A stretch of DNA of 32,000 nucleotides from an archaeon (lineage in GTDB: Archaea > Iainarchaeota > Iainarchaeia > Iainarchaeales > CSSED10-239): the NCBI GenBank assembly GCA_041657425.1, contig JBBABY010000003.1, positions 1 to 32,000 on the forward strand, read 5' to 3'. The notes beneath the pieces are model-generated. The model searched no databases and was not told the origin of the DNA. It worked only from the letters and a program-made list of their open reading frames with translations. Within the stretch, counting starts at the first letter, position 1; every line of letters starts with the position of its first letter. Shown in pieces: positions 2,580 to 26,382 of this stretch. The translations under genes and the position numbers were made by a program.

Positions 2580-2771
2580 ATGACTAAATACAAAAAATGT
2601 GAATGTTTAAAAGAAGAGAATTCCGTTGCGCGATGTGATGCTGTTGATAGATTAATGCGCGGCGAATCTGTTTTTTATTGTCCGAAGTCAAGACTTCAAT
2701 ATCATGTCACGGCAACTTGTTGGAAGGTTGATTTTGATTGGGTTGGGTCGTTAAATGGAAGAAGAAATTAA
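2580..2771 (+). CDS. hypothetical small protein
   Basis: Track ORF of 63 aa with an ATG start, same strand. It overlaps the next gene by 17 nt. Confidence 0.5.
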   Translation: MTKYKKCECLKEENSVARCDAVDRLMRGESVFYCPKSRLQYHVTATCWKVDFDWVGSLNGRRN

Positions 2772-3636
2772 AACAAAGGTTTGTAGTCGGTGTAAGAGGG
2801 GATTGCCGTTAACGAAGTTTAGGAGAGAAAAAAGTAGAAAAGATGGATTGCAAATGTGGTGTAAAGATTGCCAAAGTGAATATGGGAGGGAAAGAAATAA
2901 AATATTACATCCAACGGAATCAAAAATCCGTGATGTTTTGCGTATTTGTAAACAATGTGGAATTGTATTCGAAGTAAAATATCCATATCAACACCCGCAA
3001 TATTGTTCTCGTGAGTGTGCATATATCGGAAATAGAAGTAAAATAAAATGTAAATGCTTGACATTCGGAAAAGAATTTGAAGTGTGGACATCTTATATTG
3101 TTAGGGGTGGTGGGAAATATTGCTCGGTTGGATGTAAATCGATTGCCAGAAGAAAACGTATAAATCGTGTTTGTCAGCAATGTGGGAAAGAATTTGAAAC
3201 CACACAATACAAAGTTGATCACGAAAGGGGGAAATTTTGTTCTGATGAATGCAGTCGCAAATTTCGAATCGGGAAAAAATGGTCAGAGGATAAATGTTTA
3301 AATTTAAGATATATAAGACGTGGTGAAAATGCATATCAATGGAAGGATGGTGTCACATCATTAAATAATCAAATTAGACATTGCACAAAAATGAGAAAAT
3401 GGATTCTTTCTATATTTGCCAGAGATAATTACCGAGATTGGTTCAGCGGATGCAAAGGAACACGCAAAAACCCTATTCAAGCACACCATATAATACCTTT
3501 CCATACAATAATAGAAAAATATAATATAACGACTTTGGAAGAAGCAGAATCATGCGAAGAATTATGGGATATAAATAATGGAATCACCATGTTGAAGAAT
3601 TCTCATAAAGCATATCATGATATGTGGGGGTGGTAA
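2755..3636 (+). CDS. free-standing HNH endonuclease with N-terminal repeated zinc-ribbon modules
   Basis: C-terminal HHIIPF ... NGITMLKNSHKAYH is an HNH motif. Upstream are three repeats of C-x2-C-G-x-x-F-E ... (K/Q)(Y/F)CS-x-(E/G)C, plus a CSRC...CKDC ribbon. Confidence 0.85.
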   Translation: MEEEIKTKVCSRCKRGLPLTKFRREKSRKDGLQMWCKDCQSEYGRERNKILHPTESKIRDVLRICKQCGIVFEVKYPYQHPQYCSRECAYIGNRSKIKCKCLTFGKEFEVWTSYIVRGGGKYCSVGCKSIARRKRINRVCQQCGKEFETTQYKVDHERGKFCSDECSRKFRIGKKWSEDKCLNLRYIRRGENAYQWKDGVTSLNNQIRHCTKMRKWILSIFARDNYRDWFSGCKGTRKNPIQAHHIIPFHTIIEKYNITTLEEAESCEELWDINNGITMLKNSHKAYHDMWGW

Positions 3637-3637
3637 A

Positions 3638-5275
3638 ATGGCAATTCTTCGGGATTATCAAAACGAGGCTGTCCAAGCAGTCTGGAACTACTGGGAAAGT
3701 GGAAACGGTAGAAACGCTCTGATCGTCTCCCCAACGGGTTCTGGGAAAAGCATTATTTTGGCAGAGATGATTAAACGATTATGTTTGGATAGTTCCGACA
3801 TTAAAATATTGGTTATTACCGACACCAGAGAATTAATTTCGCAGGATTACAAATCTATAAAAAACCACTACCCAGAATGCAACATTGGAATTTACAGTGC
3901 GGGGTTACGTGAGAAAAGTGTTAAGCCAACCGTGATTTGCTGTGGCATTCAGAGTATGTATAATAAAGCATATGATTTCGGTCGTGTGGATGTTGTCATA
4001 ATTGACGAAGCTCATTTAGTTTCACCCAAATCCACAACAAGATTCCAGAAATTTTTTACACAACTTCGGGTATCATCACCGCATTTTGTGGTCGTTGGTC
4101 TAACCGCAACACCATTTAGGCTTTCCGACGGAATGTTAAACGAAGGAGACGATGCTTTATTTGAAGATATTGTGTATGTCTGTGATATGAAGAGATTGAT
4201 TAAAGAAGGATATTTGGTAAATGTAATTAGCAAAGGCGGATTGGCGAAAATTGATTTAAAGGGAGTGCGCGTTCAAGCGGGAGATTATAATTCTAAAGAT
4301 CTTGCCTATGCAGCAGATTCGAAGATATTGGTTGAAAAGGCTGTTAATGAAATCGTGGAATATGGTAAGGATAGAAAGTGCTGGTTGATATTTACTTCTG
4401 GTATAAAACATTCAGAGCACGTTGCCGAAGAATTAAAAAAGCATAAAATTGATTGCGAGATTGTAACCGGAGATACACCGTCTGAAGAAAGAAATAAAAT
4501 TGTGGAAAAATATAGAAATGGTAAATTGAGATGTTTGATTAACGTCGGAATCTACACAAAAGGATTGGACGTTCCGGCTATTGATCTTGTGGCGCTTTTA
4601 ACAAGTACAAAATCAACGGGGCGCTACATCCAGATGGTGGGCCGTTCTATGAGACCTTCCCCGACGACAAACAAGGCAAACGCTATTTTGCTCGATTTTG
4701 GAAATAATTGTATTGAACATGGCCCGATTGATTCTATAGATCCAGTAAAGATACATGGAAAAGATATATTTGGGAAACCACCAGCAAAACCGCCTATGCG
4801 TGAGTGCGAGCGTTGCCACTGCATTCACCACGCGCGGTTATCTGTTTGTCCGGGGTGTGGGTTTGTTTATCCGAAAGATGAAGACACCGAAGCAAGGCAC
4901 GGTGCTACCGCGTATTCTGGCCCGGTAATGAGTGATCAAATAAAACCCTACATTATAGATGTAGTTGACACCTACGTTTCCAAACACTCCAAACCGGGAA
5001 AAATACCGTCGGTGAAAGTGGAATTTATTGATAGAATGGATCGTGCCTATCCGATTTGGATCTGCCTTGATCACCGGAACTACGCCGCTGAAAAAGCGCG
5101 TGCATTGGTTCAACAACTTGGAGGAAAATCAAAATCGGTGGAGGAAGCATTAAAAGAATATCCCAATTGGCGGAAAGTTGAAAAGATCGAAGTCCGACCC
5201 GATGGTAAATTTACTAGAGTGACCGGCTTCGTCTTTGCAAAGGGGCAATCGACGCAGCAGAAGTTGGAGGGGTAA
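3638..5275 (+). CDS. SF2 DEAD/DEAH-box DNA helicase (phage replicative/recombination helicase type)
   Basis: Walker A SPTGSGKS, DEAH box IIDEAH, TATP, and a helicase C domain (VGIYTKGLDVP, QMVGRSMR). A Zn ribbon CERCHC...CPGCG follows. ATG 3638 sits 1 nt after the HNH stop, behind GGGGGTGG. Confidence 0.9.
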   Translation: MAILRDYQNEAVQAVWNYWESGNGRNALIVSPTGSGKSIILAEMIKRLCLDSSDIKILVITDTRELISQDYKSIKNHYPECNIGIYSAGLREKSVKPTVICCGIQSMYNKAYDFGRVDVVIIDEAHLVSPKSTTRFQKFFTQLRVSSPHFVVVGLTATPFRLSDGMLNEGDDALFEDIVYVCDMKRLIKEGYLVNVISKGGLAKIDLKGVRVQAGDYNSKDLAYAADSKILVEKAVNEIVEYGKDRKCWLIFTSGIKHSEHVAEELKKHKIDCEIVTGDTPSEERNKIVEKYRNGKLRCLINVGIYTKGLDVPAIDLVALLTSTKSTGRYIQMVGRSMRPSPTTNKANAILLDFGNNCIEHGPIDSIDPVKIHGKDIFGKPPAKPPMRECERCHCIHHARLSVCPGCGFVYPKDEDTEARHGATAYSGPVMSDQIKPYIIDVVDTYVSKHSKPGKIPSVKVEFIDRMDRAYPIWICLDHRNYAAEKARALVQQLGGKSKSVEEALKEYPNWRKVEKIEVRPDGKFTRVTGFVFAKGQSTQQKLEG

Positions 5276-10780: not shown

Positions 10781-11581
10781 TCAAACCCCCAACACCTGCA
10801 TAATCGTCTTACCCTTCAACAACTCATTCTTCTTTTGTATCGCTCTCCTCAACCAATATTTCTCCGACACATTACAATAATGACAAATAGAATTTTGGTC
10901 TTTCTGCAATCTATCAGAGATCTTTCCATGTCGCGCTGCCAACTCTAGATATGTATTCTCATACAACGACCCAACCTTCTCCGTCAACCCGCGCACCATA
11001 CAACAAAAGAACACGTTGCCATTGGGCAGGAGTTGATAAGCAGGTGATTCTAGGAAGTTGCAAAGTCTACGCCCTTTTTTTAATTCGGCCCGACCGCGCG
11101 CCATATCCTCGCACTTATTGGAAATAAACCCCCACCCCATGTTCATATATTCGAGATGCTTAACATTCATTTCAATAATGGAGCGTGCTTCAAAGTAATC
11201 TTGTGTTTGTGGGATTTTGGCATTACCATAAGCGTCGGGGAGGTGAAGGACAAATTTGTCGATGGGAATATCAATTAACCTACAAGCATTAGTTGGTGTC
11301 AATCCGGTTAGTGTGCTAAATATAGAAATGGGGTGTCCTTTGTGATGTGCCCACATAATCATATCTGTTGTCTGTGGATTAAGGAATGGTTCGCATAGAC
11401 CAGAAAAGAAAATGGGTAGATTTTGTGGAACCGTTTTCATAAAGTTTTTGAACTGGTCAAGTGTCATTAAAGGATTACCTTTGTAATTTTTAATAATCGT
11501 TTCCTGTGGACAATATTTTAGGCAGTTGATTGAGCAACCGATTTTGGTTGTGATCTCGAAGTAGGAGGGTGGTAGGATCAT
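10781..11581 (-). CDS. small radical SAM-like enzyme with twitch/partial-SPASM C-terminus
   Basis: N-terminal GCSINCLKYC cluster motif (spacing CX3CX3C, read directly from the DNA). FSGLCEPFLNP is a GGEP-type SAM motif. CNFLESPAYQLLPNGNVFFC fits CX13GX4C, followed by CHYC. Confidence 0.65.
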   Translation of the reverse strand: MILPPSYFEITTKIGCSINCLKYCPQETIIKNYKGNPLMTLDQFKNFMKTVPQNLPIFFSGLCEPFLNPQTTDMIMWAHHKGHPISIFSTLTGLTPTNACRLIDIPIDKFVLHLPDAYGNAKIPQTQDYFEARSIIEMNVKHLEYMNMGWGFISNKCEDMARGRAELKKGRRLCNFLESPAYQLLPNGNVFFCCMVRGLTEKVGSLYENTYLELAARHGKISDRLQKDQNSICHYCNVSEKYWLRRAIQKKNELLKGKTIMQVLGV

Positions 11582-11730
11582 TTTATCCCCTCATTATATA
11601 TCTGTATATTTTCATACGGTTCGCCATCGTCTTTGATATCCACGACTCTCCCCTGTGTTCTATCATATTTCACCCATTTTTTAGATGATGTGTTGTAAAC
11701 TTGGAAATATATATCGTAGTTCGTTTTCAT
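11578..11730 (-). CDS. hypothetical 50-aa protein
   Basis: MKTNYDIYFQVYNTSSKKWVKYDRTQGRVVDIKDDGEPYENIQIYNEGIK. ATGA overlaps with both flanking genes. Below the track cutoff. Confidence 0.5.
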   Translation of the reverse strand: MKTNYDIYFQVYNTSSKKWVKYDRTQGRVVDIKDDGEPYENIQIYNEGIK

Positions 11731-12596
11731 CTCTTCCTCACCAAATCAAACCCCGTTACTTCTTCAACGATACAAACTCCCAAATTCTTCAAATGATACG
11801 GCAGCAAATCCCACGCACCCCTTTTAATAAGAATTTTTACAATGCCCCACGATTGATTAATATTGCCCGTTGTTGCAGTCAACCCGCTTTCGTTCCAACG
11901 ATAGTGAGATAAAACTTCTGGGAATAATCTACCTTTATATTTTCGCAAACGCAAAGACAAATCTCCATCATCAGTGTGTTTTAAAGATTCATCAAACACA
12001 TACCCATATTCAGATTTTATTTTATCTAATGTTTCTTTTTTAAATAATATTCCTCCAATTCCCCCAATCTCGTTGTGTGTACCGGGCATCTCCATAATAA
12101 TTTGTTCCTTATTATCTTTATGCATTTTTTGGCAATGCACACACCAATCCAAATCTGAATTGATATAGTTTTCCATTGCCATAACCATTCTTTCCAAGTT
12201 TTGTGGTTCCCACCAATCATCAGCATCTAGGAAAGTAACATATTTACCAGAACATTCATTAAACCCCTTATTGCGCGCGGTCGCACAATTAGATTTTTTA
12301 TCTTCCCGTATAATACGGATTTTTGGATTTGGATCATCTACATTAATGCATTTCCATATTTCATCCAATGTATTATCTGTGCATGGTGCGAGAACAATAA
12401 AACATTCCCAGTTTGTGTAAGTTTGGTTGATAACGGATTGTAGGCATTCTCCGATGTATTTTCCAGAATTATAAGCAGGAATGACAATACTTACGAGTGG
12501 AAGATTGTCATTATATTTTTTGCAATTAAATTCTCGCAACAATTCAAAATATAGTGGTGTTGGTTTTACTATTGGGTTCCAAAATACGCGGTTCAT
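11727..12596 (-). CDS. family 2 (GT-A) glycosyltransferase
   Basis: VSIVIPAYNSGKYIGECLQSVINQTYTNWECFIV and FLDADD (DXD). ATG 12596 lies 1 nt after the upstream stop. Confidence 0.85.
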   Translation of the reverse strand: MNRVFWNPIVKPTPLYFELLREFNCKKYNDNLPLVSIVIPAYNSGKYIGECLQSVINQTYTNWECFIVLAPCTDNTLDEIWKCINVDDPNPKIRIIREDKKSNCATARNKGFNECSGKYVTFLDADDWWEPQNLERMVMAMENYINSDLDWCVHCQKMHKDNKEQIIMEMPGTHNEIGGIGGILFKKETLDKIKSEYGYVFDESLKHTDDGDLSLRLRKYKGRLFPEVLSHYRWNESGLTATTGNINQSWGIVKILIKRGAWDLLPYHLKNLGVCIVEEVTGFDLVRKR

Positions 12597-12597
12597 T

Positions 12598-12972
12598 TTA
12601 ATCCTCCAATTTATCCATGAATTTATTAATAAAATATCCAATCGCTCCACCACAACCAAATCCGGTTATCATTCCATAAGAAATGATTATCATTTGACAT
12701 CCCATTATATATGCCCACATATGATAAATAGGTTGCGTTTCACTTGCAAATTCTATAATTTTTAATATTCCTAATATTCCTCCCATAAGTGATATTATTA
12801 AAAATGGAGCGATTTTTATTACATTATTCCAATTATATAAAAAGGATATATATTTTTTTGAAAACAATAATATATATATCGAGATTCCAACGAATATTCC
12901 AAATAATATTCCCATAATATGTGGAAATATTAAACATTTAACCATGGGCCAAAATTCTATAAATTCTTCCAT
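12598..12972 (-). CDS. small polytopic membrane protein (about 4 TM)
   Basis: Track ORF of 124 aa, almost entirely hydrophobic, inside the GT operon. Confidence 0.65.
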   Translation of the reverse strand: MEEFIEFWPMVKCLIFPHIMGILFGIFVGISIYILLFSKKYISFLYNWNNVIKIAPFLIISLMGGILGILKIIEFASETQPIYHMWAYIMGCQMIIISYGMITGFGCGGAIGYFINKFMDKLED

Positions 12973-12973
12973 T

Positions 12974-13306
12974 TTATTTCCTCTCCTTCAACTCTCTTAA
13001 TATAGTCACGACTTCCTTCCAATCCTTATTCAAATCCGCTGAATTTTTCATAAATAAATATTGATAATCGGATCGTATTAAAACTCTCCCTGATATTACA
13101 ACTCCGATAAATCCTATTATTGGAATAATTATATAAATAAGAATGGCAGCATTGCCATATATCCCAAATTTTTCACAAGCCAACATAGCAAATGTTTCAA
13201 ACGTCACGATTGGAAAAACATATTGATATATGTTCCACGCGGTCTGAAACTCGGTTTGTCGATCTGCAATATATTTTAAAATTGACAATGGAATTTTTAT
13301 GGTCAT
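12974..13306 (-). CDS. small membrane protein (about 110 aa)
   Basis: ATG 13306 overlaps the radical SAM stop (TGATG). The track's 13321 start is a TTG. Two or three TM helices and a charged C-terminus. Confidence 0.6.
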   Translation of the reverse strand: MTIKIPLSILKYIADRQTEFQTAWNIYQYVFPIVTFETFAMLACEKFGIYGNAAILIYIIIPIIGFIGVVISGRVLIRSDYQYLFMKNSADLNKDWKEVVTILRELKERK

Positions 13307-15783
13307 CAAATCCCCATCCAATTTTTAATCCGTCGCATTCTTTTAAATCCCAATAACTTTACAGCGAGTCTCCCCAATTGAATATATCGTGTGCCCATTT
13401 CAAATCTTCCATTACATTCGGGGTTATTACAAATTACCCCCACGCTGAATTGCGCATGTGGTCGTTTAGTTGTTTTATAAGTTTGCATCTTCCCACAATG
13501 GGGGCATTTTACAAAGATTTCATCATTGGTTATTTTTGTTGGAACAGATACGGGAATTGCTGTGTATTTTAAAGTGAACACTTCATTTTTCAACGTGTCA
13601 AAATCTTCATCTGATAAATTTGTGAGATTACATACGTTATCATAATTATAATCCGTGCTTGTCAATTTATTAATAAATTCTATTTCATCTTTTATGATTC
13701 CATTTTGTAAAGCATGTTTATAAATAGCGGTCCCGGGAAACGGAATAATAAAGCCCATAAATAAACCACCTCGTGAAAGATGTGGGTGTTCTCGAATGAA
13801 TTGTAAAGTAGTGCGTGCGGTGGAAAGTGTTTCTGCATTATCTCCAAAGATGAACCCCCCTTGCGGAACAAGATTTCTTTCTGCGATCATTCCAAGCGTG
13901 GTTTCAATCTGCGCGGGTGTTATGTGTTTTCGCATTGAATCGAGAACTTTTTGGTTGTAACTTTCGAGACCTAATCCGATAACTACATTCCCACAGGATT
14001 TCATGGCATCAAGAAGTTCTGCGTCCGCGCAATCAACGCGCAGATTGCAATACATTTCAATTCGCCACGGAATGGTTTTCTGATATTCTTTAAATTGTCG
14101 GCAGAATTCAAGTGCGCGCGCTTTATCGTATGAAAACAATTCGTCAAGAAATGTGAAGAAGTTAATGTGGTATTTTTCAACAACGTATTTGATTTCTGAC
14201 ATTATATTTTCTGCGGAACGGTAGCGGTATTTTGGGCCGGTTGTGTGGTAGCAAAATGTGCAATTATGAACAAGAACGTCGTTGGCATAGAACCAATTAT
14301 ATCCCGGCACTTCTAAACAATACGTATTATGTAACCCATCTAGTGGTTCAACGCTTTTAACTACGTGATTTACATCTGGTTGCCCGGGTATACGGGATTT
14401 TGTTGTTCTTCCACAACCACCTTTCCACATCGGATTTTTATTCCCCGTTTTGGATGCTTTATAATTCATTCTGGATTCTATAGAGCGAACTTTACCACGT
14501 TGTTCTTTTCCGCGTTGCACAAAAAATTCGTGTGGTAGATTTTTTGCGGGATTATTATCTTTCATACGTTGTGATAGTTCTGGATGGTAAGTTGGGATAT
14601 GTTTATGATTGTCGGTAAGTGTTAAATTTTTTTCAACATTATTTATTTGATTATGATCATTGTGATGAACCCTTTCGTATTGTGAGAGTTTCCTTCCAAT
14701 CATAGATTCCATTATTAAAGTGTGCTGATATCGATGCTTTTTCCTTCCCCATATTATAATCGTGTAACCAGTGGTGCTCAATTTATAATGAACAGCACGA
14801 ACACTATCACCGGGTCTCAAAAATTGTGCTTCCGTTTCATACTCTCTCAACGGGACATATTGGTTTGAGTTTAAAAATTTTACAAATTTGTGATCTGGTG
14901 TACAGTCAATATATCCCCCCTCTTTAAATGAAACTCTAACGAGATTTTTATTTTCTCCGGTTTTAGCAACTATTGAGGACTGTGCATATAATACATCTTT
15001 TGTAATTGGATCTCGTGTAAGAACTTTTGGGGTCTGCCCAACGAGATCTTTTATTTTAATGTTGCCATTTGTGGTTGCAATTAAAGTGTCTCCTGATAAA
15101 CAATTTGCCGAACAACCGCGCGCTGAAACCAACATATACGGGCGCGGTGGATAATCTCGTGGATATTGATTCCAACCGCCAAGTTCTTGGTGTTTCAAGT
15201 ATTCGGAATAACCGAATAGTTCAAGATCGGGAAACGGGAGTGCATCTAGGTTTTTGATTTGGGGGCGTGGTTGTGTTTTAGTAAACGTTGGAATAGGCCA
15301 TGTTGTTGAATAAATAATACCTTTAACATTTTCCACAGATTGCCCCTTCTCAATAGTTTGTATCAACTCTAATGCTGTTTCTTCACCCTCAAAAATAATC
15401 CCGTAATGTGGATTAATAAGTTTCATCATTAGTTCGGGGTTAGACGAAATGATACCTCCACCACAGACGGTTATTGTATTGGGAGATGCTTCGTGTACAT
15501 ATTTTATTATATCGCGCACAGCGGGATACATTATGGAAATTGTGCCGGTGAATACGAAATCATAGTGAGTGTCAGTAATAGTTTTTTGTACAATGTTTTT
15601 AACCAATCCGGGTGTGTGATTAAGGTTTAATGCCGAGACATCACATCCATTGTGTTTGAGATAAGAAGCGATGTAGGGCATTCCCACGGGCATTAAGTAA
15701 TCATAGTCAATACCGGTTTCGTTTTCATTGTAGACAGTTCCGAAACCTTTATTAAATCTAGGTAAGATAAAAAGGATTTTCAT
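13306..15783 (-). CDS. class B (B12-binding domain) radical SAM enzyme, interrupted by an intein
   Basis: N-terminal B12-binding-type Rossmann region (KILFILP ... ITVCGGGIISSNPE). After intein removal the cluster motif is CSANCTFC. Also FLDELF, GLESYNQKVLDSMRK, and a C-terminal Zn ribbon CPHCG...CNNPEC. ATG 15783 forms an ATGA overlap upstream. Confidence 0.9.
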   Translation of the reverse strand: MKILFILPRFNKGFGTVYNENETGIDYDYLMPVGMPYIASYLKHNGCDVSALNLNHTPGLVKNIVQKTITDTHYDFVFTGTISIMYPAVRDIIKYVHEASPNTITVCGGGIISSNPELMMKLINPHYGIIFEGEETALELIQTIEKGQSVENVKGIIYSTTWPIPTFTKTQPRPQIKNLDALPFPDLELFGYSEYLKHQELGGWNQYPRDYPPRPYMLVSARGCSANCLSGDTLIATTNGNIKIKDLVGQTPKVLTRDPITKDVLYAQSSIVAKTGENKNLVRVSFKEGGYIDCTPDHKFVKFLNSNQYVPLREYETEAQFLRPGDSVRAVHYKLSTTGYTIIIWGRKKHRYQHTLIMESMIGRKLSQYERVHHNDHNQINNVEKNLTLTDNHKHIPTYHPELSQRMKDNNPAKNLPHEFFVQRGKEQRGKVRSIESRMNYKASKTGNKNPMWKGGCGRTTKSRIPGQPDVNHVVKSVEPLDGLHNTYCLEVPGYNWFYANDVLVHNCTFCYHTTGPKYRYRSAENIMSEIKYVVEKYHINFFTFLDELFSYDKARALEFCRQFKEYQKTIPWRIEMYCNLRVDCADAELLDAMKSCGNVVIGLGLESYNQKVLDSMRKHITPAQIETTLGMIAERNLVPQGGFIFGDNAETLSTARTTLQFIREHPHLSRGGLFMGFIIPFPGTAIYKHALQNGIIKDEIEFINKLTSTDYNYDNVCNLTNLSDEDFDTLKNEVFTLKYTAIPVSVPTKITNDEIFVKCPHCGKMQTYKTTKRPHAQFSVGVICNNPECNGRFEMGTRYIQLGRLAVKLLGFKRMRRIKNWMGI
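14263..15102 (-). mobile_element. intein (280 aa) with HNH homing-endonuclease domain
   Basis: Starts CLSGDTLI (Cys1). Block B is IDCTPDH. HNH motif HHNDHNQINNVEKNL...NHKH. Ends FYANDVLVHN and is followed by a +1 Cys. Excision restores CX3CX2C in frame. Confidence 0.85.
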
Positions 15784-15968
15784 ATTCCAAACCACCATCC
15801 CGGTCTATCACATGCAAATGTGGAATAGAGTGGATCAGAAAGTGTTGCATTTACACATTTTTGAAATTCACCCACTTGTGTTAAATGAATAACTGTGCCA
15901 TGTATAAATATTGCCAATATTATTACTATAACACTTAAAAATATTGTTAATTTATAACCATCTTTCAT
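15780..15968 (-). CDS. small single-TM protein
   Basis: Track ORF of 62 aa with LTIFLSVIVIILAIFI. ATGA overlaps on both sides. Confidence 0.55.
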   Translation of the reverse strand: MKDGYKLTIFLSVIVIILAIFIHGTVIHLTQVGEFQKCVNATLSDPLYSTFACDRPGWWFGI

Positions 15969-16609
15969 TCTTTCTCCTCCTTACATTCAATCAACTTAAT
16001 ATCCGGTTTTTCTTTTTCAATTTGTTGCAATGATTGTTGAGCATATAACATTGAATTTTTGTTGGCACAAATATCATCCAATCGTGGGGGAATATCAACA
16101 CCATACTTTCTGAAATCCAGAGAATAAAACTTTTCATATGCCCCACGTGCTTCTTCAAACGTTCCAGCCATTACGAGAGCGCGGATTGATGATTCACATA
16201 CATCACGCAACATTTTTGCCGGCACTTCGAGGTCAATATTTGCTTTGATGTATTCTACAATTTCATATTCAAATTGTGATGTAATCGGAATTCCATAAAA
16301 GTTCGCACCTTCGCATCGTCCATATTCATTTGATTTTCCACCGAGTTCAACCACTTGTTCTACTCTCAATTTTTCACTATTTAAAATATCTTCTATCTCG
16401 TGCATTCTTTGTTTAATTTCTTTTTGTTTCCGTTCCAGTTGTTCTTTTTCGAGTATGAGAGTATCCCATCCTTTTCGTTTAAGCACATTACTACGAGCAA
16501 TTCCCCAGAAATCTTTTATCTGACTGATAAAGCGTTGATTGATTGCTTTCAAATCCTGCGTTAGTATTTTTTCAAATCCTTCGCGCTCCCGTTCGGTTAG
16601 TTTTGGCAT
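15965..16609 (-). CDS. hypothetical protein with coiled-coil segment
   Basis: Track ORF of 214 aa with LEKEQLERKQKEIKQRMHEIEDIL. It is embedded in the GT operon and overlaps the upstream GT by 13 nt. Confidence 0.65.
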   Translation of the reverse strand: MPKLTEREREGFEKILTQDLKAINQRFISQIKDFWGIARSNVLKRKGWDTLILEKEQLERKQKEIKQRMHEIEDILNSEKLRVEQVVELGGKSNEYGRCEGANFYGIPITSQFEYEIVEYIKANIDLEVPAKMLRDVCESSIRALVMAGTFEEARGAYEKFYSLDFRKYGVDIPPRLDDICANKNSMLYAQQSLQQIEKEKPDIKLIECKEEKE

Positions 16610-17769
16610 TTCAACAACCTCCTGTAAACTTCCATATACTGTTTCGCAATATTCTCCGGTAAATATTTCAATGCTGTTTCCCTCCCTCCTTTTCCAAGTT
16701 GCTCTTTTAATGCATCACCACAAATTAAAATCTTAAATGCTAGTTCTTCGTGGTTTCCGTTTTTTACCAACAATCCATCAACACCATCTTTTATTATACT
16801 TTCCGAACCGCCCGACCGGGTTGCTATTACTGGTGTTCCTGTAGCCATCGCTTCAAGAATGGTTATACCCTCTGATTCTTCATATGAAGGTGAAATATAT
16901 ATTGATGCATTAGAATATTCTTTCATTAATAATGTATCGCTTACTTTTCCAACAAAATTCACATTGTCAATTAAATCCAAATCGGAAATGAGTTTCATTA
17001 TATCTGCGCAATATATAGGACTTCGTATCGAACCAACGACATTCAATTTTATATAAGGCATTTGTTTTTTAACTATATAAAGTGATCGGATAAGAACGTC
17101 TAATCCTTTTCGTTTTTCAATCCCCCCAACATATAATAATAGATTTGGTATTGTGTATTTTGTTGTAACATCCATAAAACATGGATCAACCGGGTTGGAA
17201 ATGACATCTACATGTATCGCATAGTTTCCATATTGTGTTTTCGATATGCATTTTCTCATTTCTCTTTCTACATAATAAGAAACGGCAACAACGTTTTCCA
17301 TTTTTTCAAAGATGTGTGATTCCATTTTACAACAACTTATACGATGCCACGCGCCTTTTAGACCAGACCAATATTTTGATTCATTGTGTGACACTCCGTG
17401 AACAGTTATAAGAACAGGACATTTTTTATATGCAATTGCTGGGTATCCATATTCCCAGCTTGAACCATTGGCGTGGATTAAATCTGGTTTTATTTTATTT
17501 ATTTCATGCAATATCAATTGCTTGGAAAGGAATTTTGGAACCAAGATTGGTTTGTTTCTTAAAGGAAAATGGATATAATGGATTGCAAGATTTTTGTTGA
17601 TTGACACAAAAGATTTATCAATTCCATCCGTGATTGTCAATACGTGAAAGTCATATTCTGGGCACAATTTTGATAATGCATTGGCAGTTAAATAAACTGA
17701 CCGCATTATTCCGCCGGTTATTGTTTCATTGGGTAGTGGGTAGTCTCCGAGTATAAGAATACGTGTCAT
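16597..17769 (-). CDS. GT-B glycosyltransferase, GT4-like
   Basis: ESEGITILEAMATGTPVIATRSGGSESIIKDGVDGLLV is the EX7E retaining GT-B signature. The N-terminus RILILGDYPLP is typical. Confidence 0.85.
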   Translation of the reverse strand: MTRILILGDYPLPNETITGGIMRSVYLTANALSKLCPEYDFHVLTITDGIDKSFVSINKNLAIHYIHFPLRNKPILVPKFLSKQLILHEINKIKPDLIHANGSSWEYGYPAIAYKKCPVLITVHGVSHNESKYWSGLKGAWHRISCCKMESHIFEKMENVVAVSYYVEREMRKCISKTQYGNYAIHVDVISNPVDPCFMDVTTKYTIPNLLLYVGGIEKRKGLDVLIRSLYIVKKQMPYIKLNVVGSIRSPIYCADIMKLISDLDLIDNVNFVGKVSDTLLMKEYSNASIYISPSYEESEGITILEAMATGTPVIATRSGGSESIIKDGVDGLLVKNGNHEELAFKILICGDALKEQLGKGGRETALKYLPENIAKQYMEVYRRLLKCQN

Positions 17770-18758
17770 ATTAATTCCTTGATGAGTTGTTTCACCGATT
17801 CTTGTTTTCTTTCACGGCTGAAATAACGTGCGCGCTCACGCGCTTTTGAACCGTCCATAGTCATTGCTTTATTAATTGCATTAATAGTTGCTGTAACATC
17901 TCCATAAGGCACGATAATACCCGTGTCTTCTACAATCCACGGCAAAGCACCTTTATCGCTAACAACAGGCACACAACCATATGCCATTGCCTCTACAAGT
18001 GAGATACCAAATGTTTCATCGCGTGAAAGTTGGCAATAGACTTTGGCGCGTTTCAAATAGTCCTCGTATTCTTTTCGTGGGAGATGTTCTAATATTTTTG
18101 TGTTATAAAGAATATTTTTTGATGCTTCTTGAAATATTGAAATTCCTTTATAAGCATACGCATGTTTCGAACACACGGCGGTTACAGCAAGATCTTCTTT
18201 TTGTGGAAGTGGTATATCACAAGTTTCCGTATCAACCCAATTCGGAATTGTGATTATATGAGCCATTGTGTGGGTTAAGTAATAATTTTCAAAATAATAA
18301 TCGTCTTCGGGCAATGCAAATGTATTATCCATCAATTTTATTCCTATACCAACTTTTAATGTTTTAACATTGTATACGGGGGAAGGAACAATAATTTCTG
18401 TTGCATTTCTTATAATCCATCTTGAAACATATCCACGGATTGGTTTAAGTTGATTTCCATAATTAATTTCAGATATTCCAGAAACTTCAAATCCACCGAC
18501 ATTCACAGCTGTGGGTATATTAAATATTTTTGCAATAATAACTAATGGTAGTGCCGGGCAATCTGCAAACCAAACCCAGACGAGATTTGATTTTCTAATA
18601 TTTAAAACTTGTTGAAAACATTTAAATAGATAAAGCGGAAAATCCATTTTTTTGATCGGGGTGTTAAAAATAAAAACATCGTGATCTTCCTTTAAAAGTT
18701 CTGCATCTCCTTGTATAAAAGGACTGCGCATATCTCCGGCGAAAAAGATTTTTGTCAT
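17766..18758 (-). CDS. GT-B glycosyltransferase, GT1/GT4-like
   Basis: ETFGISLVEAMAYGCVPVVSDKGALPWIVED (EX7E). 330 aa, with an ATGA overlap downstream. Confidence 0.75.
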   Translation of the reverse strand: MTKIFFAGDMRSPFIQGDAELLKEDHDVFIFNTPIKKMDFPLYLFKCFQQVLNIRKSNLVWVWFADCPALPLVIIAKIFNIPTAVNVGGFEVSGISEINYGNQLKPIRGYVSRWIIRNATEIIVPSPVYNVKTLKVGIGIKLMDNTFALPEDDYYFENYYLTHTMAHIITIPNWVDTETCDIPLPQKEDLAVTAVCSKHAYAYKGISIFQEASKNILYNTKILEHLPRKEYEDYLKRAKVYCQLSRDETFGISLVEAMAYGCVPVVSDKGALPWIVEDTGIIVPYGDVTATINAINKAMTMDGSKARERARYFSRERKQESVKQLIKELI

Positions 18759-19547
18759 TTAATATCCTCTAATAAAATCTTTAACTATATTCCACATTAC
18801 CATTATTTTTTCATCGAGAATTCTATAATGAATTAAAAACGATGTTTCTGGTTTTTCCAGATTGTTCCTTTTTAAAAATTCTCGTAAATTTTCCATTACT
18901 TTTATAACGTTTTGGTGATAAGCAACAAAGGAATAGTTACTTCGTTTTTGTATACTATTTTCTGAAATAGTATATTCAAACAAAGGTGTCGGGTCGTAAT
19001 AAATTTGTGTTGTTGCTACAAATCTTATTGAGAAATCATAGTCTTCACAAAGTGGGAGCAGGTTGTATAGACCTGTTTTTTCCAATAAACTTCTGCGAAT
19101 TACACATGACGATGTTACAACGAAATCCCCTATTATTTCCTGTGGAAGCATGTCGGGTTCATTTGTAATATTTCTTTTAATATATAAATCTTTTCCTATG
19201 TTCCCGTTACTGCAAACCAATCCTAATTTTGGGTCTATTAATAATCTTGATATCTGCGATGCTAATTTTTCTGGATACCAAACATCATCATCATCTAAAA
19301 AGGCAATGTATTTTCCATTTGAAACTTTAATGCCCATGTTTCTGGATATGGCTGGATATGATGTTGTAGGTATATGAAGAAAATGGACATTTGGATAATT
19401 ATCGGAAATTTCGTTGGTTGCCCATGTGTCATCTACAACAATAATTTCATAATCTGTAAAAGTCTGATCTAGGACACTTTGGATTGCTCGTTTTAAAGAT
19501 AGGTTGCGGTTGTGAGTTGGAATGATAACAGAAACGAGAGGAGGCAT
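18759..19547 (-). CDS. family 2 (GT-A) glycosyltransferase
   Basis: VSVIIPTHNRNLSLKRAIQSVLDQTFTDYEIIVVDD and FLDDDD (DXD). First gene after the promoter-like box. Confidence 0.85.
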   Translation of the reverse strand: MPPLVSVIIPTHNRNLSLKRAIQSVLDQTFTDYEIIVVDDTWATNEISDNYPNVHFLHIPTTSYPAISRNMGIKVSNGKYIAFLDDDDVWYPEKLASQISRLLIDPKLGLVCSNGNIGKDLYIKRNITNEPDMLPQEIIGDFVVTSSCVIRRSLLEKTGLYNLLPLCEDYDFSIRFVATTQIYYDPTPLFEYTISENSIQKRSNYSFVAYHQNVIKVMENLREFLKRNNLEKPETSFLIHYRILDEKIMVMWNIVKDFIRGY

Positions 19548-19592: not shown

Positions 19593-21149
19593 TTATTTGC
19601 CTTCACGAATACGTTTTCTTCCAAGTTCACAATATTCAGGATTGAGTTCTATACCAATATAATCACGATTATGGAGTTTACAAGCGACACCGGTTGCTGA
19701 TGAGCCGGAGAAGGGATCGAGAATTGCGGCGGGAACTGGTATGTTATTTGTGCAATTACAAGATGGTTGCCAATCTATGGTTTCAGTAATTTGAGCAACA
19801 TGACCACCAGTGCGTTCTAATCCCTGCGCATTACCGGGATTGAGTTTTTGCTTCTGATCATCAGAACCAATGGTGGGGCGAGTTATATATGATTCTTTTT
19901 TCGCAACTCTAACCCACGGCGCTCCACAATGTGGGCAAACGCCTTTTTCTGATGTTCCCGCGAGAATTAGGGGTTCTACAAGCCTTATCGGATATGCGGC
20001 AAAATGTGAACCTTTATACGGTTTCGGATTTACCACAAGAGCCATTGGTTCACCATCTTCATTGTGAAGAAGTCCTTGCCATGTCTTGAAGAAGAAATCG
20101 GAATCCCGCATGTAACGAAGGCCATAACCATTAGGTTCATAGCGAGCGTTAAATCCTGTGTAAGTTTCATTCCCTGTGTTATCTTGCTTTTTAAATTGCC
20201 CCCCATCTGGATACTTGGAGTTTGTGTTTACGCATTGACGAATAACACCGCGCGGTCTTTTATCTTTGTTGTAAGATTCTGATGAAAGTTGCATTGTTGC
20301 TATGTAGTCATAGTAATATTTCTGTGATTTTGAGAATAAGAATATGTGTTCAATGGAAGAGCCGGGGCGATCTGTTACAGATGATGGAAGTGAATTTCTT
20401 TTTACCCAAGGAATATCAGAACGGAGATACCAACCCCCCTTACTTGCTTTTAACCACTCTTCATCCAAATCTTCAATTGTTCTTTTAGTATGTTTTGGAA
20501 CGTCATTCCAAGTATCATAATCTCGAAGCAACGAAGTTTTGATTTTTTCTACTGTATACATTGTCTGTGGTGATGAGGCACCATCGGAGCGCATAGAAAA
20601 TGCTAAAGCCCACGGGATACCAATAAGGTCTTTGGGTTTCATTCCCATAAGTTTTGACTTATCTACATTCCCGGATTTAGAGTGACCTTCAAGATTTCTT
20701 CCTTTAAGAATATCTGATCCACCGTTGAACGATCCGCATTTAGAAGCACAATAACTATCCCCAATATTCATCCAGAAAACACCGTCGCTTCTTAAAATCC
20801 TTTTTAATTCATGAAAGATAGTTGTTAGGTGTTTAACAAACAATTCAGGTGTAGGCTCTTGTCCCAGTTCACCTTTCCACGCTCCACACTTTGAACAAAT
20901 ATCACTTCGCAAATTCTCACGGTGCGTATTCCCTTCATGTTGCATTGGACCCGGTTTTGTATCAGATGATCTATATCCCGGTGGATGAACTTCCCCCCAT
21001 TCATGTTGGCAGTTTGGATCTCCATCCCATATTTGTGGTTCGGTATTGTACGAACGCAATCCATAATATGGACTTGACGTTACCGCACAATGCACTGACT
21101 CACTATCCATCCTTTTCAAAACTGTTAAAGCGTCGCCTTGGATAATCAT
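19593..21149 (-). CDS. beta-class N4/N6 DNA methyltransferase with large central insertion
   Basis: N-terminal motif IV VTSSPYY. GELGQEPTPELFVKHL...VFWMNIGDSY. C-terminal motif I ILDPFSGSSATG. Zn-type CQHEW...CSKCG. No adjacent restriction endonuclease was recognised. Confidence 0.85.
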   Translation of the reverse strand: MIIQGDALTVLKRMDSESVHCAVTSSPYYGLRSYNTEPQIWDGDPNCQHEWGEVHPPGYRSSDTKPGPMQHEGNTHRENLRSDICSKCGAWKGELGQEPTPELFVKHLTTIFHELKRILRSDGVFWMNIGDSYCASKCGSFNGGSDILKGRNLEGHSKSGNVDKSKLMGMKPKDLIGIPWALAFSMRSDGASSPQTMYTVEKIKTSLLRDYDTWNDVPKHTKRTIEDLDEEWLKASKGGWYLRSDIPWVKRNSLPSSVTDRPGSSIEHIFLFSKSQKYYYDYIATMQLSSESYNKDKRPRGVIRQCVNTNSKYPDGGQFKKQDNTGNETYTGFNARYEPNGYGLRYMRDSDFFFKTWQGLLHNEDGEPMALVVNPKPYKGSHFAAYPIRLVEPLILAGTSEKGVCPHCGAPWVRVAKKESYITRPTIGSDDQKQKLNPGNAQGLERTGGHVAQITETIDWQPSCNCTNNIPVPAAILDPFSGSSATGVACKLHNRDYIGIELNPEYCELGRKRIREGK

Positions 21150-23612: not shown

Positions 23613-23922
23613 TTCCAACCACCGTATCAACCAAGTGCAAAATCGACAACCATTCCGGCACATCAATATTTACACTACCCGCATATCCCTTTTCAATCGC
23701 TTCTTCTATTTCTTTTCTAAAAAGATTTCTTCTACTCTGTGGCATATGATCCCAGTTTGCTTTTATGATATCAGCGATAGTGCTGACAACATAAGTTTGA
23801 CGACCGAGAGCGTATCGAAACGCACAAAATAAGAGAATGTCTTGGTTACAATCTTCGAAGTTGATGTAGATTTCTCCGGTTCTATGGCACGGTAGTGGGG
23901 GTGTTAGTTTTTGATTAACCAT
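23605..23922 (-). CDS. conserved-looking hypothetical protein (FRYALGRQTY motif)
   Basis: Track ORF. ATG 23922 overlaps the nrdJ stop (TGATG); GTG 23931 is the alternative start. Confidence 0.6.
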   Translation of the reverse strand: MVNQKLTPPLPCHRTGEIYINFEDCNQDILLFCAFRYALGRQTYVVSTIADIIKANWDHMPQSRRNLFRKEIEEAIEKGYAGSVNIDVPEWLSILHLVDTVVGND

Positions 23923-25315
23923 CACGAACACCTACTTTTGCCACAATTCGTACAAATCCTGCATCCGCCTTCCATCACATAATGCGGCGCGTCACAACAT
24001 TTTTCTTCTGTTGCTTCAACCTTTATACTTTTGGGCATTAACATTTTTATCGCATCGTCCAAACATTTTCCTGTAATATCCGCGCACGATTTACCACACG
24101 ATAATTTGTTCTGCATCGCCGTCATGCACTTTACTTTAGAGAATTGTTTTACATAGTTCTCTGCTGGTGTCCCCCATTCCAATCCTGCCGAAATAGAACG
24201 CCCCATTGCTGCCATATTTGCCTGACACCCACCAACACCATCACCTTCCACAAAGATCATTGTTGGTTCCTCTTTGTCGTGGCCAATGATAACATAGAAT
24301 TTCCCGCATCCACTATGGACTTTGTAAATTACAGCGGGGGTTTTGGATTCGTAGAAAGCATTTTCAGTTTCGATCCAATCTACGATACTTTCAACAACCA
24401 CGGGTTTCTTAAGTGCCAACACTTCATTCTCACGGCTACCATTGCGATAGATTGTAAGACCTTTACAACCACTCTTCCACGCGTCAATAATGATCTGTTT
24501 GATTTCTTCTTTAGTAGCAGAGTTTGGAAGGTTGATTGTTTTTGAAATGGACATATCCACATTCTTTTGGAATGTGGCCTGCATTTTTACGTGCATTGAT
24601 GAAGGGATGTCCATTGCGTTTTGGTAGAGGAGTTTGAAAGAATCTGGTAAAAATTCTATATCGCGAATCGTCCCCTTTTCATGGCAGTGTCTAATAATGG
24701 CTTGTCTCGTTCCATCCAACGTATCATATTTTACGCCATCCACGGTTACGAAGAATCCTACTTTGCCATTAAGATCAGTCATTAGATTTTTCAACGCTTC
24801 TTCAAACAACGGATGCACAATATAATGTTCGCCCAACGTGTCATGCCGCGTATATACCCAATTAAATGCGGGTTCGATACCTGATGAAGCACCCGCAATA
24901 ATACTAATTGTTCCCGTTGGTGCAATCGAAGTCAATGAAGCATTTAACCTGTTCTGTTTGATATTCGGATTCTTACCCAATGACTCTGACACTTCATGTG
25001 CGCGCTCATTAATAAATTTCATAATTTCTTCGGCAATATCAAGTGCCTTCTGACTATTATAAGGAATCCCCATTTTAATCAACGCGTCGTGGAATCCCAT
25101 AACACCGAGACCGATCTTGCGCGTTCGCTTGGATGCAAAGTCAATTTCTTGGAGTGGGTATTTGTTTTTGTCGATTACATTATTGAGGAATATAACCGCT
25201 GTGTCTATTGTGGCTTTGAGTTTGTCGTAGTCAATTGCATTGTCTTTTATGTGGTGGGAAAGGTTGATGCTACCCAAGTTGCAGCTCCCCCATGATTCTA
25301 ATAGAGCCTCCCCGC
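23922..25315 (-). CDS. nrdJ: class II (adenosylcobalamin-dependent) ribonucleotide reductase, exon 2
   Basis: Begins within the Cys codon of NPCGE, then ALLESWGSCNLGSINL. C-terminal Zn ribbon CDAPHYVMEGGCRICTNCG. Joins exon 1 in frame (694 + 1394 nt = 696 codons). Confidence 0.9.
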
Positions 25316-25586
25316 CAAGAGGTTTTTTGTTACAGCAACGATGCTTCGTTGCAGGTGTGATCATTTCTGTCACACTCTCATATTCTCATATGAGATCGGA
25401 CTATATCATCGATGTCGCGTCTATAGTCTCTGAACCTTCATCTTATTGATAAGATGCTTGGCTGCTGATTGCCCAATCATTTCTATTTTTAAAACGTTCA
25501 CGTTTATCATTTCTGATTGCGTTGTAGTTAGAGATGCTTAAGGGTGTTCCAGCAATTTACGCGATTTTAAATCCACACGGAGTTTA
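25316..25586 (-). ncRNA. group I self-splicing intron (271 nt, no ORF)
   Basis: P1 is exon AAUCCAU paired with intron GUGGAUU, with a U.G wobble at the 5' splice site. Core elements: P AAUUGCUGG, Q AAUCAGCAGC, R GGUUCAGAGACUAUAG, S GAUGAUAUAGUCCG (P7 GACUAUA/UAUAGUC). Terminal G at 25316. Confidence 0.85.
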
Positions 25587-26280
25587 ATGGATTTGTATTG
25601 AGTTCTCCATATTCGGGAGCCGGGTTATACTTTTCGATTGTATCTTTGAACAGAATTCCCGGCTCTCCGTTATTGTAAATTCCGTTCACAATCAAGTTCA
25701 TGATTTCGGGTGTGGGATTCTTCATGAATTCATCTGTGAGTTTGACAGAGATATTAAAGTTAGAGAGTTTTCCTTCTGTCTGTTTACATGTCACAAAGTT
25801 TTTGATTTCTGGATGCGCAATATCAAGGCATCCCATCATAGCTCCCCGGCGACGGCCTCCTTGCTTGACAACCTCTGTCATTGTGTTAAAAACTTCCATA
25901 AATGAAACCACACCGGAGGAAACACCGTTGCGTTTTCCAACTTTGCTTCCAGCGGGTCGGAGTTTTGAGAAATTGAATCCGACCCCGCCCCCACGAGCGA
26001 AGATTTTTGCTGCATTTTTGTTAGCATCAAAAATACTTTCAATTGTATCTTCTACCGGCAAAAAGAAACACGCTGACAAGGCGGGGTTAGAAGTTCCGGC
26101 ATTCATCAGGGTTGGTGAGTTGGGCAAAAAATCTTTATCTACAAGAATTTTCTTGAACTGATGATATTGTTCGTCGTTGCTTGAAATGAATCGCGCTACA
26201 CGTTCACAAACATCGGGATAACTATTTTCTCCATCGACGCAATATCGTTCTTTAATGAGTTTATCTTCGTAAGTTTCCAT
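25587..26280 (-). CDS. nrdJ: class II ribonucleotide reductase, exon 1
   Basis: FLPNSPTLMNAG, ACFF, GGGVGFNFSKLRPAGS, GGRRRGAMM, ending ...ELNTNP plus the first base of the Cys codon. GGGAG SD. Confidence 0.9.
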
Positions 26281-26382
26281 TTGGGTCTCCCAAAAATTTA
26301 TGTTCTGATAACTATACAGAATTGCGTTTACACGCGTGATATAGTTATGTTTTATTTATATTTAAAGGTTTGTTATGTAAAT

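Follow-up and report, generated by a model that had tools for sequence, protein, structure and literature searches.

The stretch of DNA analyzed here (the window; 32,000 nucleotides; positions 1 to 32,000 of contig JBBABY010000003.1, GenBank assembly GCA_041657425.1, classified in the archaeal lineage Iainarchaeota) carries on its minus strand a gene for a B12-binding radical S-adenosylmethionine (SAM) enzyme. The coding sequence is interrupted by a predicted intein that lies between the first and second cysteines of the CX3CX2C motif, i.e., the motif whose cysteines are ligands of the catalytic [4Fe-4S] cluster. The coordinates of the gene, the intein, and other features of the window are listed in Table 1.

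The true start of the open reading frame (ORF) is probably Met6, because all close homologues begin with MKILF. The length of 545 amino acids (aa) that a preliminary description of this DNA had given for the ligated extein follows from this start and an 825-aa precursor. The exact 830-aa product was absent from the contig index, and the 825-aa form (P0001) differed by one residue. Pfam matches along the precursor were to B12-binding (residues 35 to 145), Intein_splicing (246 to 512), and Radical_SAM (511 to 668). The host passed the cut-offs for both enzyme domains (PF02310, B12 binding, 49 bits; PF04055, radical SAM core, 53 bits), in agreement with its earlier assignment to the B12-binding radical SAM proteins. 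It reached none of the named NCBIfam equivalogs (BchE, HpnJ, PhpK, AprD4, and others), the best score being 137 bits for BchE (cut-off, 481). Among solved structures, the closest in sequence was that of the aminoglycoside diol-dehydratase AprD4 (E = 2e-15). Weak Pfam zinc-ribbon matches were also obtained at precursor residues 763 to 801. The C-terminal tail of the host (13306..13500, minus strand) has a zinc-ribbon-like pattern (CPHCG...C-N-N-x-x-C-N-G) with weak Lar, Ogr, and IS1595 zinc-ribbon matches; such a tail is common to the close homologues but not to typical class B radical SAM enzymes.

Table 1. Positions of the interrupted radical SAM gene, its intein, and other self-splicing or nuclease-encoding features in the window
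Feature	Position	Strand	Remarks
Precursor ORF, B12-binding radical SAM enzyme interrupted by intein	13306..15798	-	830 codons open, no break
Probable start, Met6	15781..15783	-	Precursor then 825 aa, 545 aa once spliced
N-extein, B12-binding domain and linker, ending ...ARGC(-4)SAN(-1)	15103..15798	-	
First cluster ligand, Cys229	15112..15114	-	
Intein, 280 aa, Cys1 to Asn280 (ORF residues 233 to 512)	14263..15102	-	Profiles, model, absence from homologues
N-terminal splicing region, intein residues 1 to 108	14779..15102	-	Block A CLSGDT, block B IDC-T68PDH71
Block B, T68 to H71	14890..14901	-	
Putative nested homing endonuclease insert, intein residues 109 to 243	14374..14778	-	HNH core, NUMOD3-like helical DNA-binding segments, flexible linker
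HNH core, E143/H146/H147...N159...H168/H173	About 14584..14676	-	
C-terminal splicing region, intein residues 244 to 280	14263..14373	-	Block F TYC262LEVPGYNWFYAN, block G DVLVH279N280
Cys262 at block F position F:4	14317..14319	-	19th residue from the C terminus
C-extein, radical SAM core from Cys+1 (C513)	13306..14262	-	Cys-rich zinc-ribbon-like tail at end
C513-T-F-C516	14251..14262	-	
Group I intron in ribonucleotide reductase gene	25377..25596 within 25313..25596	-	Rfam RF00028, 67.3 bits (gathering score, 50)
Free-standing 293-aa ORF, C-terminal HNH_2 domain	2755..3636	+	PF13391, 25.1 bits (cut-off, 21)

Intein and predicted nested nuclease domain

The translation of the minus strand over 14203..15162 reads ...ARGCSAN/CLSGDTLIATT...FYANDVLVHN/CTFCYHTT (here and below, slashes mark the junctions or the insertion point). 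In the precursor, the cluster motif is split into two halves of four residues each by 280 residues, and it becomes contiguous only after in silico removal of the intein. Deletion of the CLSGD...VLVHN block from the translation gave ...ARGCSANCTFCYHTT, with the canonical CX3CX2C restored as CSANCTFC, as had been proposed. The intact motif of such genes escapes automatic annotation. The G+C content of the block (36.2%) was close to that of the flanks (38 to 39.5%).

The marks of a class 1 intein named in the preliminary description were all present, i.e., Cys1, a block B with T68-P-D-H71, and a terminal H279-N280 that is followed by C513 at position +1. The profile check that it had suggested was run, and all three curated intein splicing profiles passed their cut-offs: Pfam Intein_splicing on the block alone (PF14890; 48.6 bits versus 35.8; E = 1e-12), NCBIfam intein_Nterm (TIGR01445; 42.8 versus 24.5; intein residues 1 to 74), and NCBIfam intein_Cterm (TIGR01443; 19.5 versus 15.6; intein residues 260 to 280). 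The boundaries and length originally given for the block were exact. Residue conservation was read from an 18-member intein-only alignment, in which C1, G4, T10, C67, T68, and D70 were invariant and H71 was nearly so (≥90%); invariant positions in the C-terminal part were W270, F271, N274, V276, L277, and N280.

A sequence search of solved structures returned weak matches at both ends of the block, all of them to inteins (DnaB, gp41-1, and DnaX). An AlphaFold (AF2) model of the intein built on a 36-sequence alignment had a mean predicted local distance difference test score (pLDDT) of 90.1 and a predicted template modeling (TM) score of 0.80, with beta strands at intein residues 7 to 108; another run, on a 7-sequence alignment, was discarded (pLDDT, 51). 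The top Foldseek matches of the model in the PDB were solely inteins and Hint domains (Ssp and Npu DnaB, Mtu RecA, and VMA inteins), and those to the DnaB and RecA mini-inteins had a probability of 1.0 and target TM scores of 0.73 to 0.84. These alignments spanned ~281 columns, suggesting a HINT fold built from the N- and C-terminal thirds, with an inserted domain at the center. Among predicted viral structures (BFVD), the best matches were intein-bearing phage DNA polymerases, ribonucleotide reductases (RNRs), terminases, and helicases, and no radical SAM host was found among the top 50. Judged by profiles and model together, the block is an intein with a HINT fold, and the resemblance is not due to chance.

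The inserted domain is apparently an intact HNH nuclease with helical DNA-binding modules. The central HNH motif that had been pointed out is present at intein residues 145 to 168 (VHHNDHNQINNVEKNLTLTDNHKH), and at least seven PHROG "HNH endonuclease" families matched residues ~96 to 180 (E = 9e-11 to 1e-4). In the 18-member alignment, E143, H146, H147, and N159 were invariant and L160, H173, and E175 nearly so. The model of this region shows strands at residues 143 to 147 and 160 to 164 and a helix at 165 to 172 (i.e., a beta-beta-alpha arrangement), followed by helices at 174 to 218 and a disordered linker of low pLDDT at 231 to 239. Three related inteins exceeded the gathering score of Pfam HNH_3 (24.8 bits), with 38.0 (P0122), 25.2 (P0121), and 25.4 bits (P0126). 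Among 66 scanned family members, HNH_3 matched 47 at E ≤ 0.001 and NUMOD3 matched 3; weak NUMOD3 motifs were seen in P0122 and P0121.

The insertion point was examined in homologues of the host. With the spliced extein as a query, we obtained 615 homologues. Nine of these (P0002 to P0010; 542 to 558 aa) were 81 to 87% identical to the extein over 99% of its length and lacked the intein, which was carried by P0001 (825 aa, one substitution) and P0013 (823 aa). Alignment of 12 intein-less homologues, which reach down to 30% identity and include Methanoregula, Butyrivibrio, and Patescibacteria proteins, left a single, clean gap of 280 residues, located between CX3 and CX2C; a continuous alignment through these 280 residues, named earlier as the outcome that would count against an intein, was not seen. 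In the intein-less proteins, C-x-x-x runs straight into C-x-F-C (e.g., ARGCNFSCSFC and TRSCPMACTFC). C229, C513, and C516 were invariant among the homologues, which, together with the confirmed insertion point, bears out the earlier statement that the +1 cysteine is itself the second cluster ligand. In P0013, the intein occupies the identical codon (TRSCPMA/CLAGDT...VLVHN/CTFC), and no intein interrupts its close relative P0012 (TRSCPMACTFC). The DNA of the site in an intein-less allele on a phage-like contig (L001) reads ...GGTTGCAATTTTTCG/TGTTCCTTCTGC..., and the DNA flanking the insertion point in that allele is ...AATTTTTCG/TGTTCC.... Across these sequences, the presence/absence polymorphism of the intein is clear.

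Related inteins at radical SAM cluster motifs

We searched 1.84 billion 50%-identity cluster representatives exhaustively with the intein by HMMER, which yielded 2108 matches at E ≤ 0.001, of which 89 reached E ≤ 1e-30. The family was visible by this search; word-indexed protein searches, run with the intein as a single sequence or in profile form, recovered nothing longer than short fragments. Splice junctions were located in the best 150 of the 2108 matches, ~110 of which were radical-SAM-like with the junction GCxxx/C[LIV]xGDT...VLV[HK]N/Cx[FY]C. A stricter junction pattern, applied to the fetched proteins (P0121 to P0292), identified 86 to 87 inteins at CX3/CX2C. In the 66 scanned members, Intein_splicing was found in every protein, Radical_SAM in 62, and B12-binding in 59.

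The hosts are diverse. Their NCBIfam likenesses were scattered over HpnJ-, PhpK-, BchE-, ApyD-, and KedN5-like models. The inteins of these relatives were 40 to 66% identical to the window intein, and the spliced exteins were mostly only 19 to 29% identical to that of the window (40% for P0128); the discordance was pronounced for P0126 (intein, 66%; extein, 24.5%). This discordance suggests that the element moves between nonorthologous genes by recognizing the shared motif.

Insertion points other than CX3/CX2C were also found. The intein precedes the first motif cysteine in P0197 (SSRG/.../CPFSCAYC) and the third in P0225 and P0254 (GCPYKCTF/.../C), and it follows the second in P0161 and P0214, where Ser is at +1 (CxxxC/SxC). 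Every cluster-ligand cysteine thus appears to serve as the +1 nucleophile somewhere in the family. Several insertion points therefore fall within one 8-residue motif. The hosts lie mostly on uncultivated phage-like contigs.

Length variation was also marked. We counted 13 mini-inteins of 144 to 165 aa at the same radical SAM site, and longer forms of 300 to 329 aa also occur. Mini-inteins without the HNH insert include P0182, P0206, P0209, P0211, P0212, P0220, P0221, P0228, and P0239. The mini-inteins are consistent with the endonuclease loss that is expected in a homing cycle. Both the compact Cys1/Cys+1 HNH inteins and their 144- to 165-aa mini versions could find use in protein engineering.

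In a scan of 185,579 species genomes (two peptide patterns plus the intein profile), three clear members were detected, all at the same site and all on contigs of metagenome-assembled genomes (Paceibacterota, Rhodoferax, and a gammaproteobacterium). This count is a lower bound because only two peptide patterns were used. Accordingly, the element resides mostly on uncultivated, largely phage-like DNA.

The nearest other inteins were those of RNRs, with the junction GANMGxLR/C...VFVHN/CDHPDI. The HNH inteins of class II RNRs (E = 1e-17 to 1e-29 by HMMER) resemble the window intein in block B (DC-TPDH), length, and central nuclease insert, but they differ in host and site and in block F. At position F:4, the 87 radical-SAM-site inteins had Cys in 74 cases, Asp in 9, and Asn in 4, whereas 14 of 15 RNR-site relatives had Asp. 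Likewise, the radical SAM clade has (D/N)WF where the RNR-site relatives keep the usual HNF. Cys67, just ahead of the block B Thr, was invariant in both groups alike.

Inteins in radical SAM proteins are already known from Pyrococcus abyssi MoaA and from the curated NCBIfam model NF038136 ("intein-containing Rv2578c family radical SAM protein"). The latter likewise combines a radical SAM protein with an intein, but it represents another radical SAM subfamily that is not B12 binding. Scores for this model were far below its cut-off (27.5 against 700), which places the window protein and its relatives outside that family. The alignment of one relative (P0121) to NF038136, also far below the cut-off, began at the first cysteine of its motif (residue 35, four residues ahead of Cys1), pointing to an insertion point of a similar kind. 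The present host family and insertion site are new. Neither inteins in the CX3CX2C motif of B12-binding radical SAM enzymes nor this HNH-intein clade turned up in the open-access literature searched, and radical SAM is not named in the main text of a 2016 survey (Novikova). The clade is sizeable and apparently undescribed. The preliminary description had called the host unusual; it is less so than was supposed, given a related intein at the same motif in 87 fetched proteins and the curated NF038136 model. The family extends the known host range of inteins past replication and nucleotide metabolism to dozens of divergent B12-radical SAM hosts.

Proposed splicing and homing, and alternative readings

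Inteins typically occupy catalytic motifs. The sequence and model evidence above makes it very probable that the block represents a class 1 intein of full length that harbors an HNH (HNH_3/NUMOD-type) homing endonuclease as a nested domain and that it sits between cysteines 1 and 2 of CX3CX2C in a phage-encoded class B radical SAM enzyme; it presumably homes on the DNA encoding the motif. The steps of splicing that follow are those suggested by the conserved residues. The 825-aa precursor would fold its HINT domain, and Cys1 would perform an N-S acyl shift at the Asn(-1)-Cys1 bond. Cys+1, the future second cluster ligand, would then receive the N-extein by trans-thioesterification. Cyclization of Asn280, aided by His279, would release the intein, and an S-N shift would leave a normal peptide bond in a 545-aa enzyme whose intact CSANCTFC is able to bind the cluster. 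Cluster assembly would occur only after ligation. In a coinfection, the freed 280-aa HNH intein would presumably cut intein-less alleles at the motif DNA, and repair would copy the intein in (i.e., homing). The motif encoded by the target is common to the whole superfamily, which would explain why the element has also spread into many nonorthologous radical SAM genes.

The precursor is likely unable to bind the cluster before splicing; this is less than certain because the HINT fold brings the intein termini close together. Since the splice nucleophile is a ligand of the catalytic cluster, enzyme activation and splicing would be chemically coupled.

Several observations weigh against this reading. 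The two intein-bearing alleles (that of the window and P0013) were 63% identical in their inteins and 68 to 76% in their exteins, which agrees with vertical codescent within the lineage; recent homing there is not indicated. The window intein lacks the canonical F-block Asp and His (Cys262 at F:4; NWF rather than HNF), and its splicing chemistry may accordingly deviate from the textbook class 1 route. Pfam HNH_3 (PF13392) did not match the window copy of the nuclease even at E ≤ 10, so that support for the nuclease there comes from the PHROG models and family conservation. The F-block Asp (F:4) and His are common but nonobligatory in class 1 inteins.

The deviant F-block (F:4 Cys, no F-block His) and the miss by HNH_3 might also mark a decayed, nonsplicing remnant, in which case the gene would be inactive or the 830-aa protein would keep the insert as a permanent domain. 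We give this reading a very slim chance. The frame is open over all 830 codons, all splicing and HNH catalytic residues agree with the family-invariant columns, and the F-block features recur in ~85% of a large conserved clade, which argues against a private defect. The block is also wholly absent from homologues at 87% identity. Furthermore, an insert of 280 aa retained between the first and second cluster ligands would be incompatible with the CX3CX2C loop of radical SAM enzymes.

The prevalence of Cys at F:4 (85% of the clade) and the phage context raise a different reading, namely, class 3-like or hybrid splicing with Cys262 as the branch nucleophile. Class 3 inteins are thought to be phage derived, and Tori and Perler are said to have defined them as lacking an N-terminal nucleophile. 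The window intein has only the F:4 Cys of the WCT triad that marks class 3 (B:12 is Phe73 in place of Trp, and G:5 is Val278 in place of Thr), and Cys1 is present there and invariant in the family. This route is therefore extremely unlikely, and with the remaining class 3 features absent, we file the window intein as class 1 with an unusual F-block. The clade might conceivably also stand between inteins of classes 1 and 3 in its mechanism.

Whether inteins are pure parasites or posttranslational switches is debated. The default view of the window intein is that of a selfish element that its host tolerates owing to efficient splicing; it may also have a regulatory role. In its specific form, the latter would make the intein conditional, i.e., gated by redox state or Fe-S supply, with Cys-4, Cys+1, Cys+4, Cys1, Cys67, and Cys262 forming disulfide bonds or binding metal in the precursor and splicing proceeding only under reducing or anoxic conditions, in which an oxygen-labile radical SAM enzyme can be used. 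There are precedents: a disulfide between Cys-3 and Cys1 traps the P. abyssi MoaA intein, and one between Cys1 and Cys+1 traps the Pab PolII intein (PMC3922620, PMC10663303). Also in line with gating, the contrast at F:4 between the radical SAM clade and the RNR-site relatives amounts to a clade-specific gain of Cys near the active site, and each sub-site used by the family puts a ligand cysteine at +1 or directly before the intein. However, a Cys-type intein needs a Cys+1 and a homing endonuclease needs a conserved motif, so that the location is explained without regulation. The upstream cysteine of the window lies at -4 (C-S-A-N/C1), not at -3 as in MoaA and in engineered CPGC traps, and Cys67 is not specific to radical SAM hosts, as its invariance in the RNR-site relatives indicates. 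On balance, we regard gating of the window intein as unlikely. Its extension to the whole clade as a switch for anaerobiosis or Fe-S status, in which the cluster-ligand nucleophile and the F:4 Cys would hold splicing, and with it the activation of oxygen-labile phage radical SAM enzymes, through disulfide or metal binding until the cell is reducing, seems more doubtful still. The window intein offers a clean system in which conditional splicing under the control of redox state or of Fe-S supply could be tested; the predicted use of Fe-S ligand cysteines as splice nucleophiles, the F:4 Cys, and the breadth of the family make it well suited to experiments.

The P. abyssi MoaA intein (Callahan et al., 2011, as summarized in PMC3922620 and PMC10663303) is a close parallel in this respect, being the model case of an intein whose splicing is under disulfide (redox) control. 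As in the window, a Cys1 intein interrupts a radical SAM host with an oxygen-labile Fe-S cluster, and an extein cysteine lies shortly upstream; unlike the window gene, the host MoaA is not a B12-binding class B enzyme, the gene is archaeal and chromosomal rather than phage borne, and the cysteine is at -3 rather than -4. The MoaA intein may itself lie inside CX3CX2C, since Cys-3 would fit CX3C-x-x/C. The Mycobacterium tuberculosis SufB intein, whose splicing is reported to respond to oxidative stress, also sits in Fe-S cluster machinery; its host is a scaffold rather than a radical SAM enzyme, and the intein splits no cluster-ligand motif.

Genomic context

The genome of the window appears phage-like on its gene content. 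The window encodes a YqaJ-like recombinase domain, a free-standing HNH_2 protein, an SNF2/DEAD helicase, a DNA methylase, an RNR, and a metallophosphoesterase; no tRNAs were found in it. Two metagenomic contigs of 44 kb and 83 kb were syntenic over RNR, DUF3310, methylase, GT2, GT4, GT4, a 214-aa ORF, and the radical SAM gene, and in these contigs the radical SAM protein (547 aa) lacked the intein and the RNR (698 aa) was uninterrupted. IMG/VR contains an intein-less relative at 86%, and another member of the intein family adjoins Mu-F-like and prohead-protease genes. No match was obtained when 20 kb of the window was compared by megablast with 50,697 phage records, and tblastn with the extein found only B12-radical SAM genes of ~24% identity (e.g., in Streptomyces phage SF3).

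The window thus combines the intein with a group I intron in the RNR gene and a free-standing HNH ORF. The RNR large-subunit gene (23922..26295, minus strand) is split by the intron into ORFs of 237 and 483 aa. Exon 1 ends ...TNP and exon 2 resumes GE... relative to the 698-aa RNR of L001, which places the intron at the NPCGE catalytic-cysteine loop; no ORF was evident inside the intron. The HNH_2 ORF, a candidate further mobile nuclease of the same genome, lies directly upstream of, and overlaps, the SNF2/DEAD helicase gene (3617..5275). Campylobacter phage IBB_35 similarly carries several self-splicing elements and free HNH genes; its inteins are in terminase, PhoH, and RNR, and a radical SAM gene is mentioned separately and not reported to bear an intein (PMC3322345).

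The N6/N4 DNA methyltransferase (19593..21149, minus strand) is 518 aa long versus 400 aa in the syntenic contigs, and its Pfam match falls in two stretches. A second intein was considered there and rejected, the translation being simply divergent and without the Cys1/HN/+1 signature. The extra sequence looks like divergent Cys-rich insertions (e.g., CSKCGAW and CPHCGAPW). A small radical-SAM-like ORF (10781..11581, minus strand; 266 aa) has a noncanonical CX3CX3C (GCSINCLKYC) and no intein; its similarity to Radical_SAM and SPASM-maturase models is subthreshold.

The neighborhood of the radical SAM gene (11727..19547, minus strand) contains four glycosyltransferase genes (two GT2 and two GT4) and a 214-aa coiled-coil-like ORF. 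The order of this block is kept on the phage-like contigs L001 to L003, and the block looks like a phage module for glycan or sugar modification. Two small hydrophobic ORFs (12598..12972 and 12974..13321) also lie within it.

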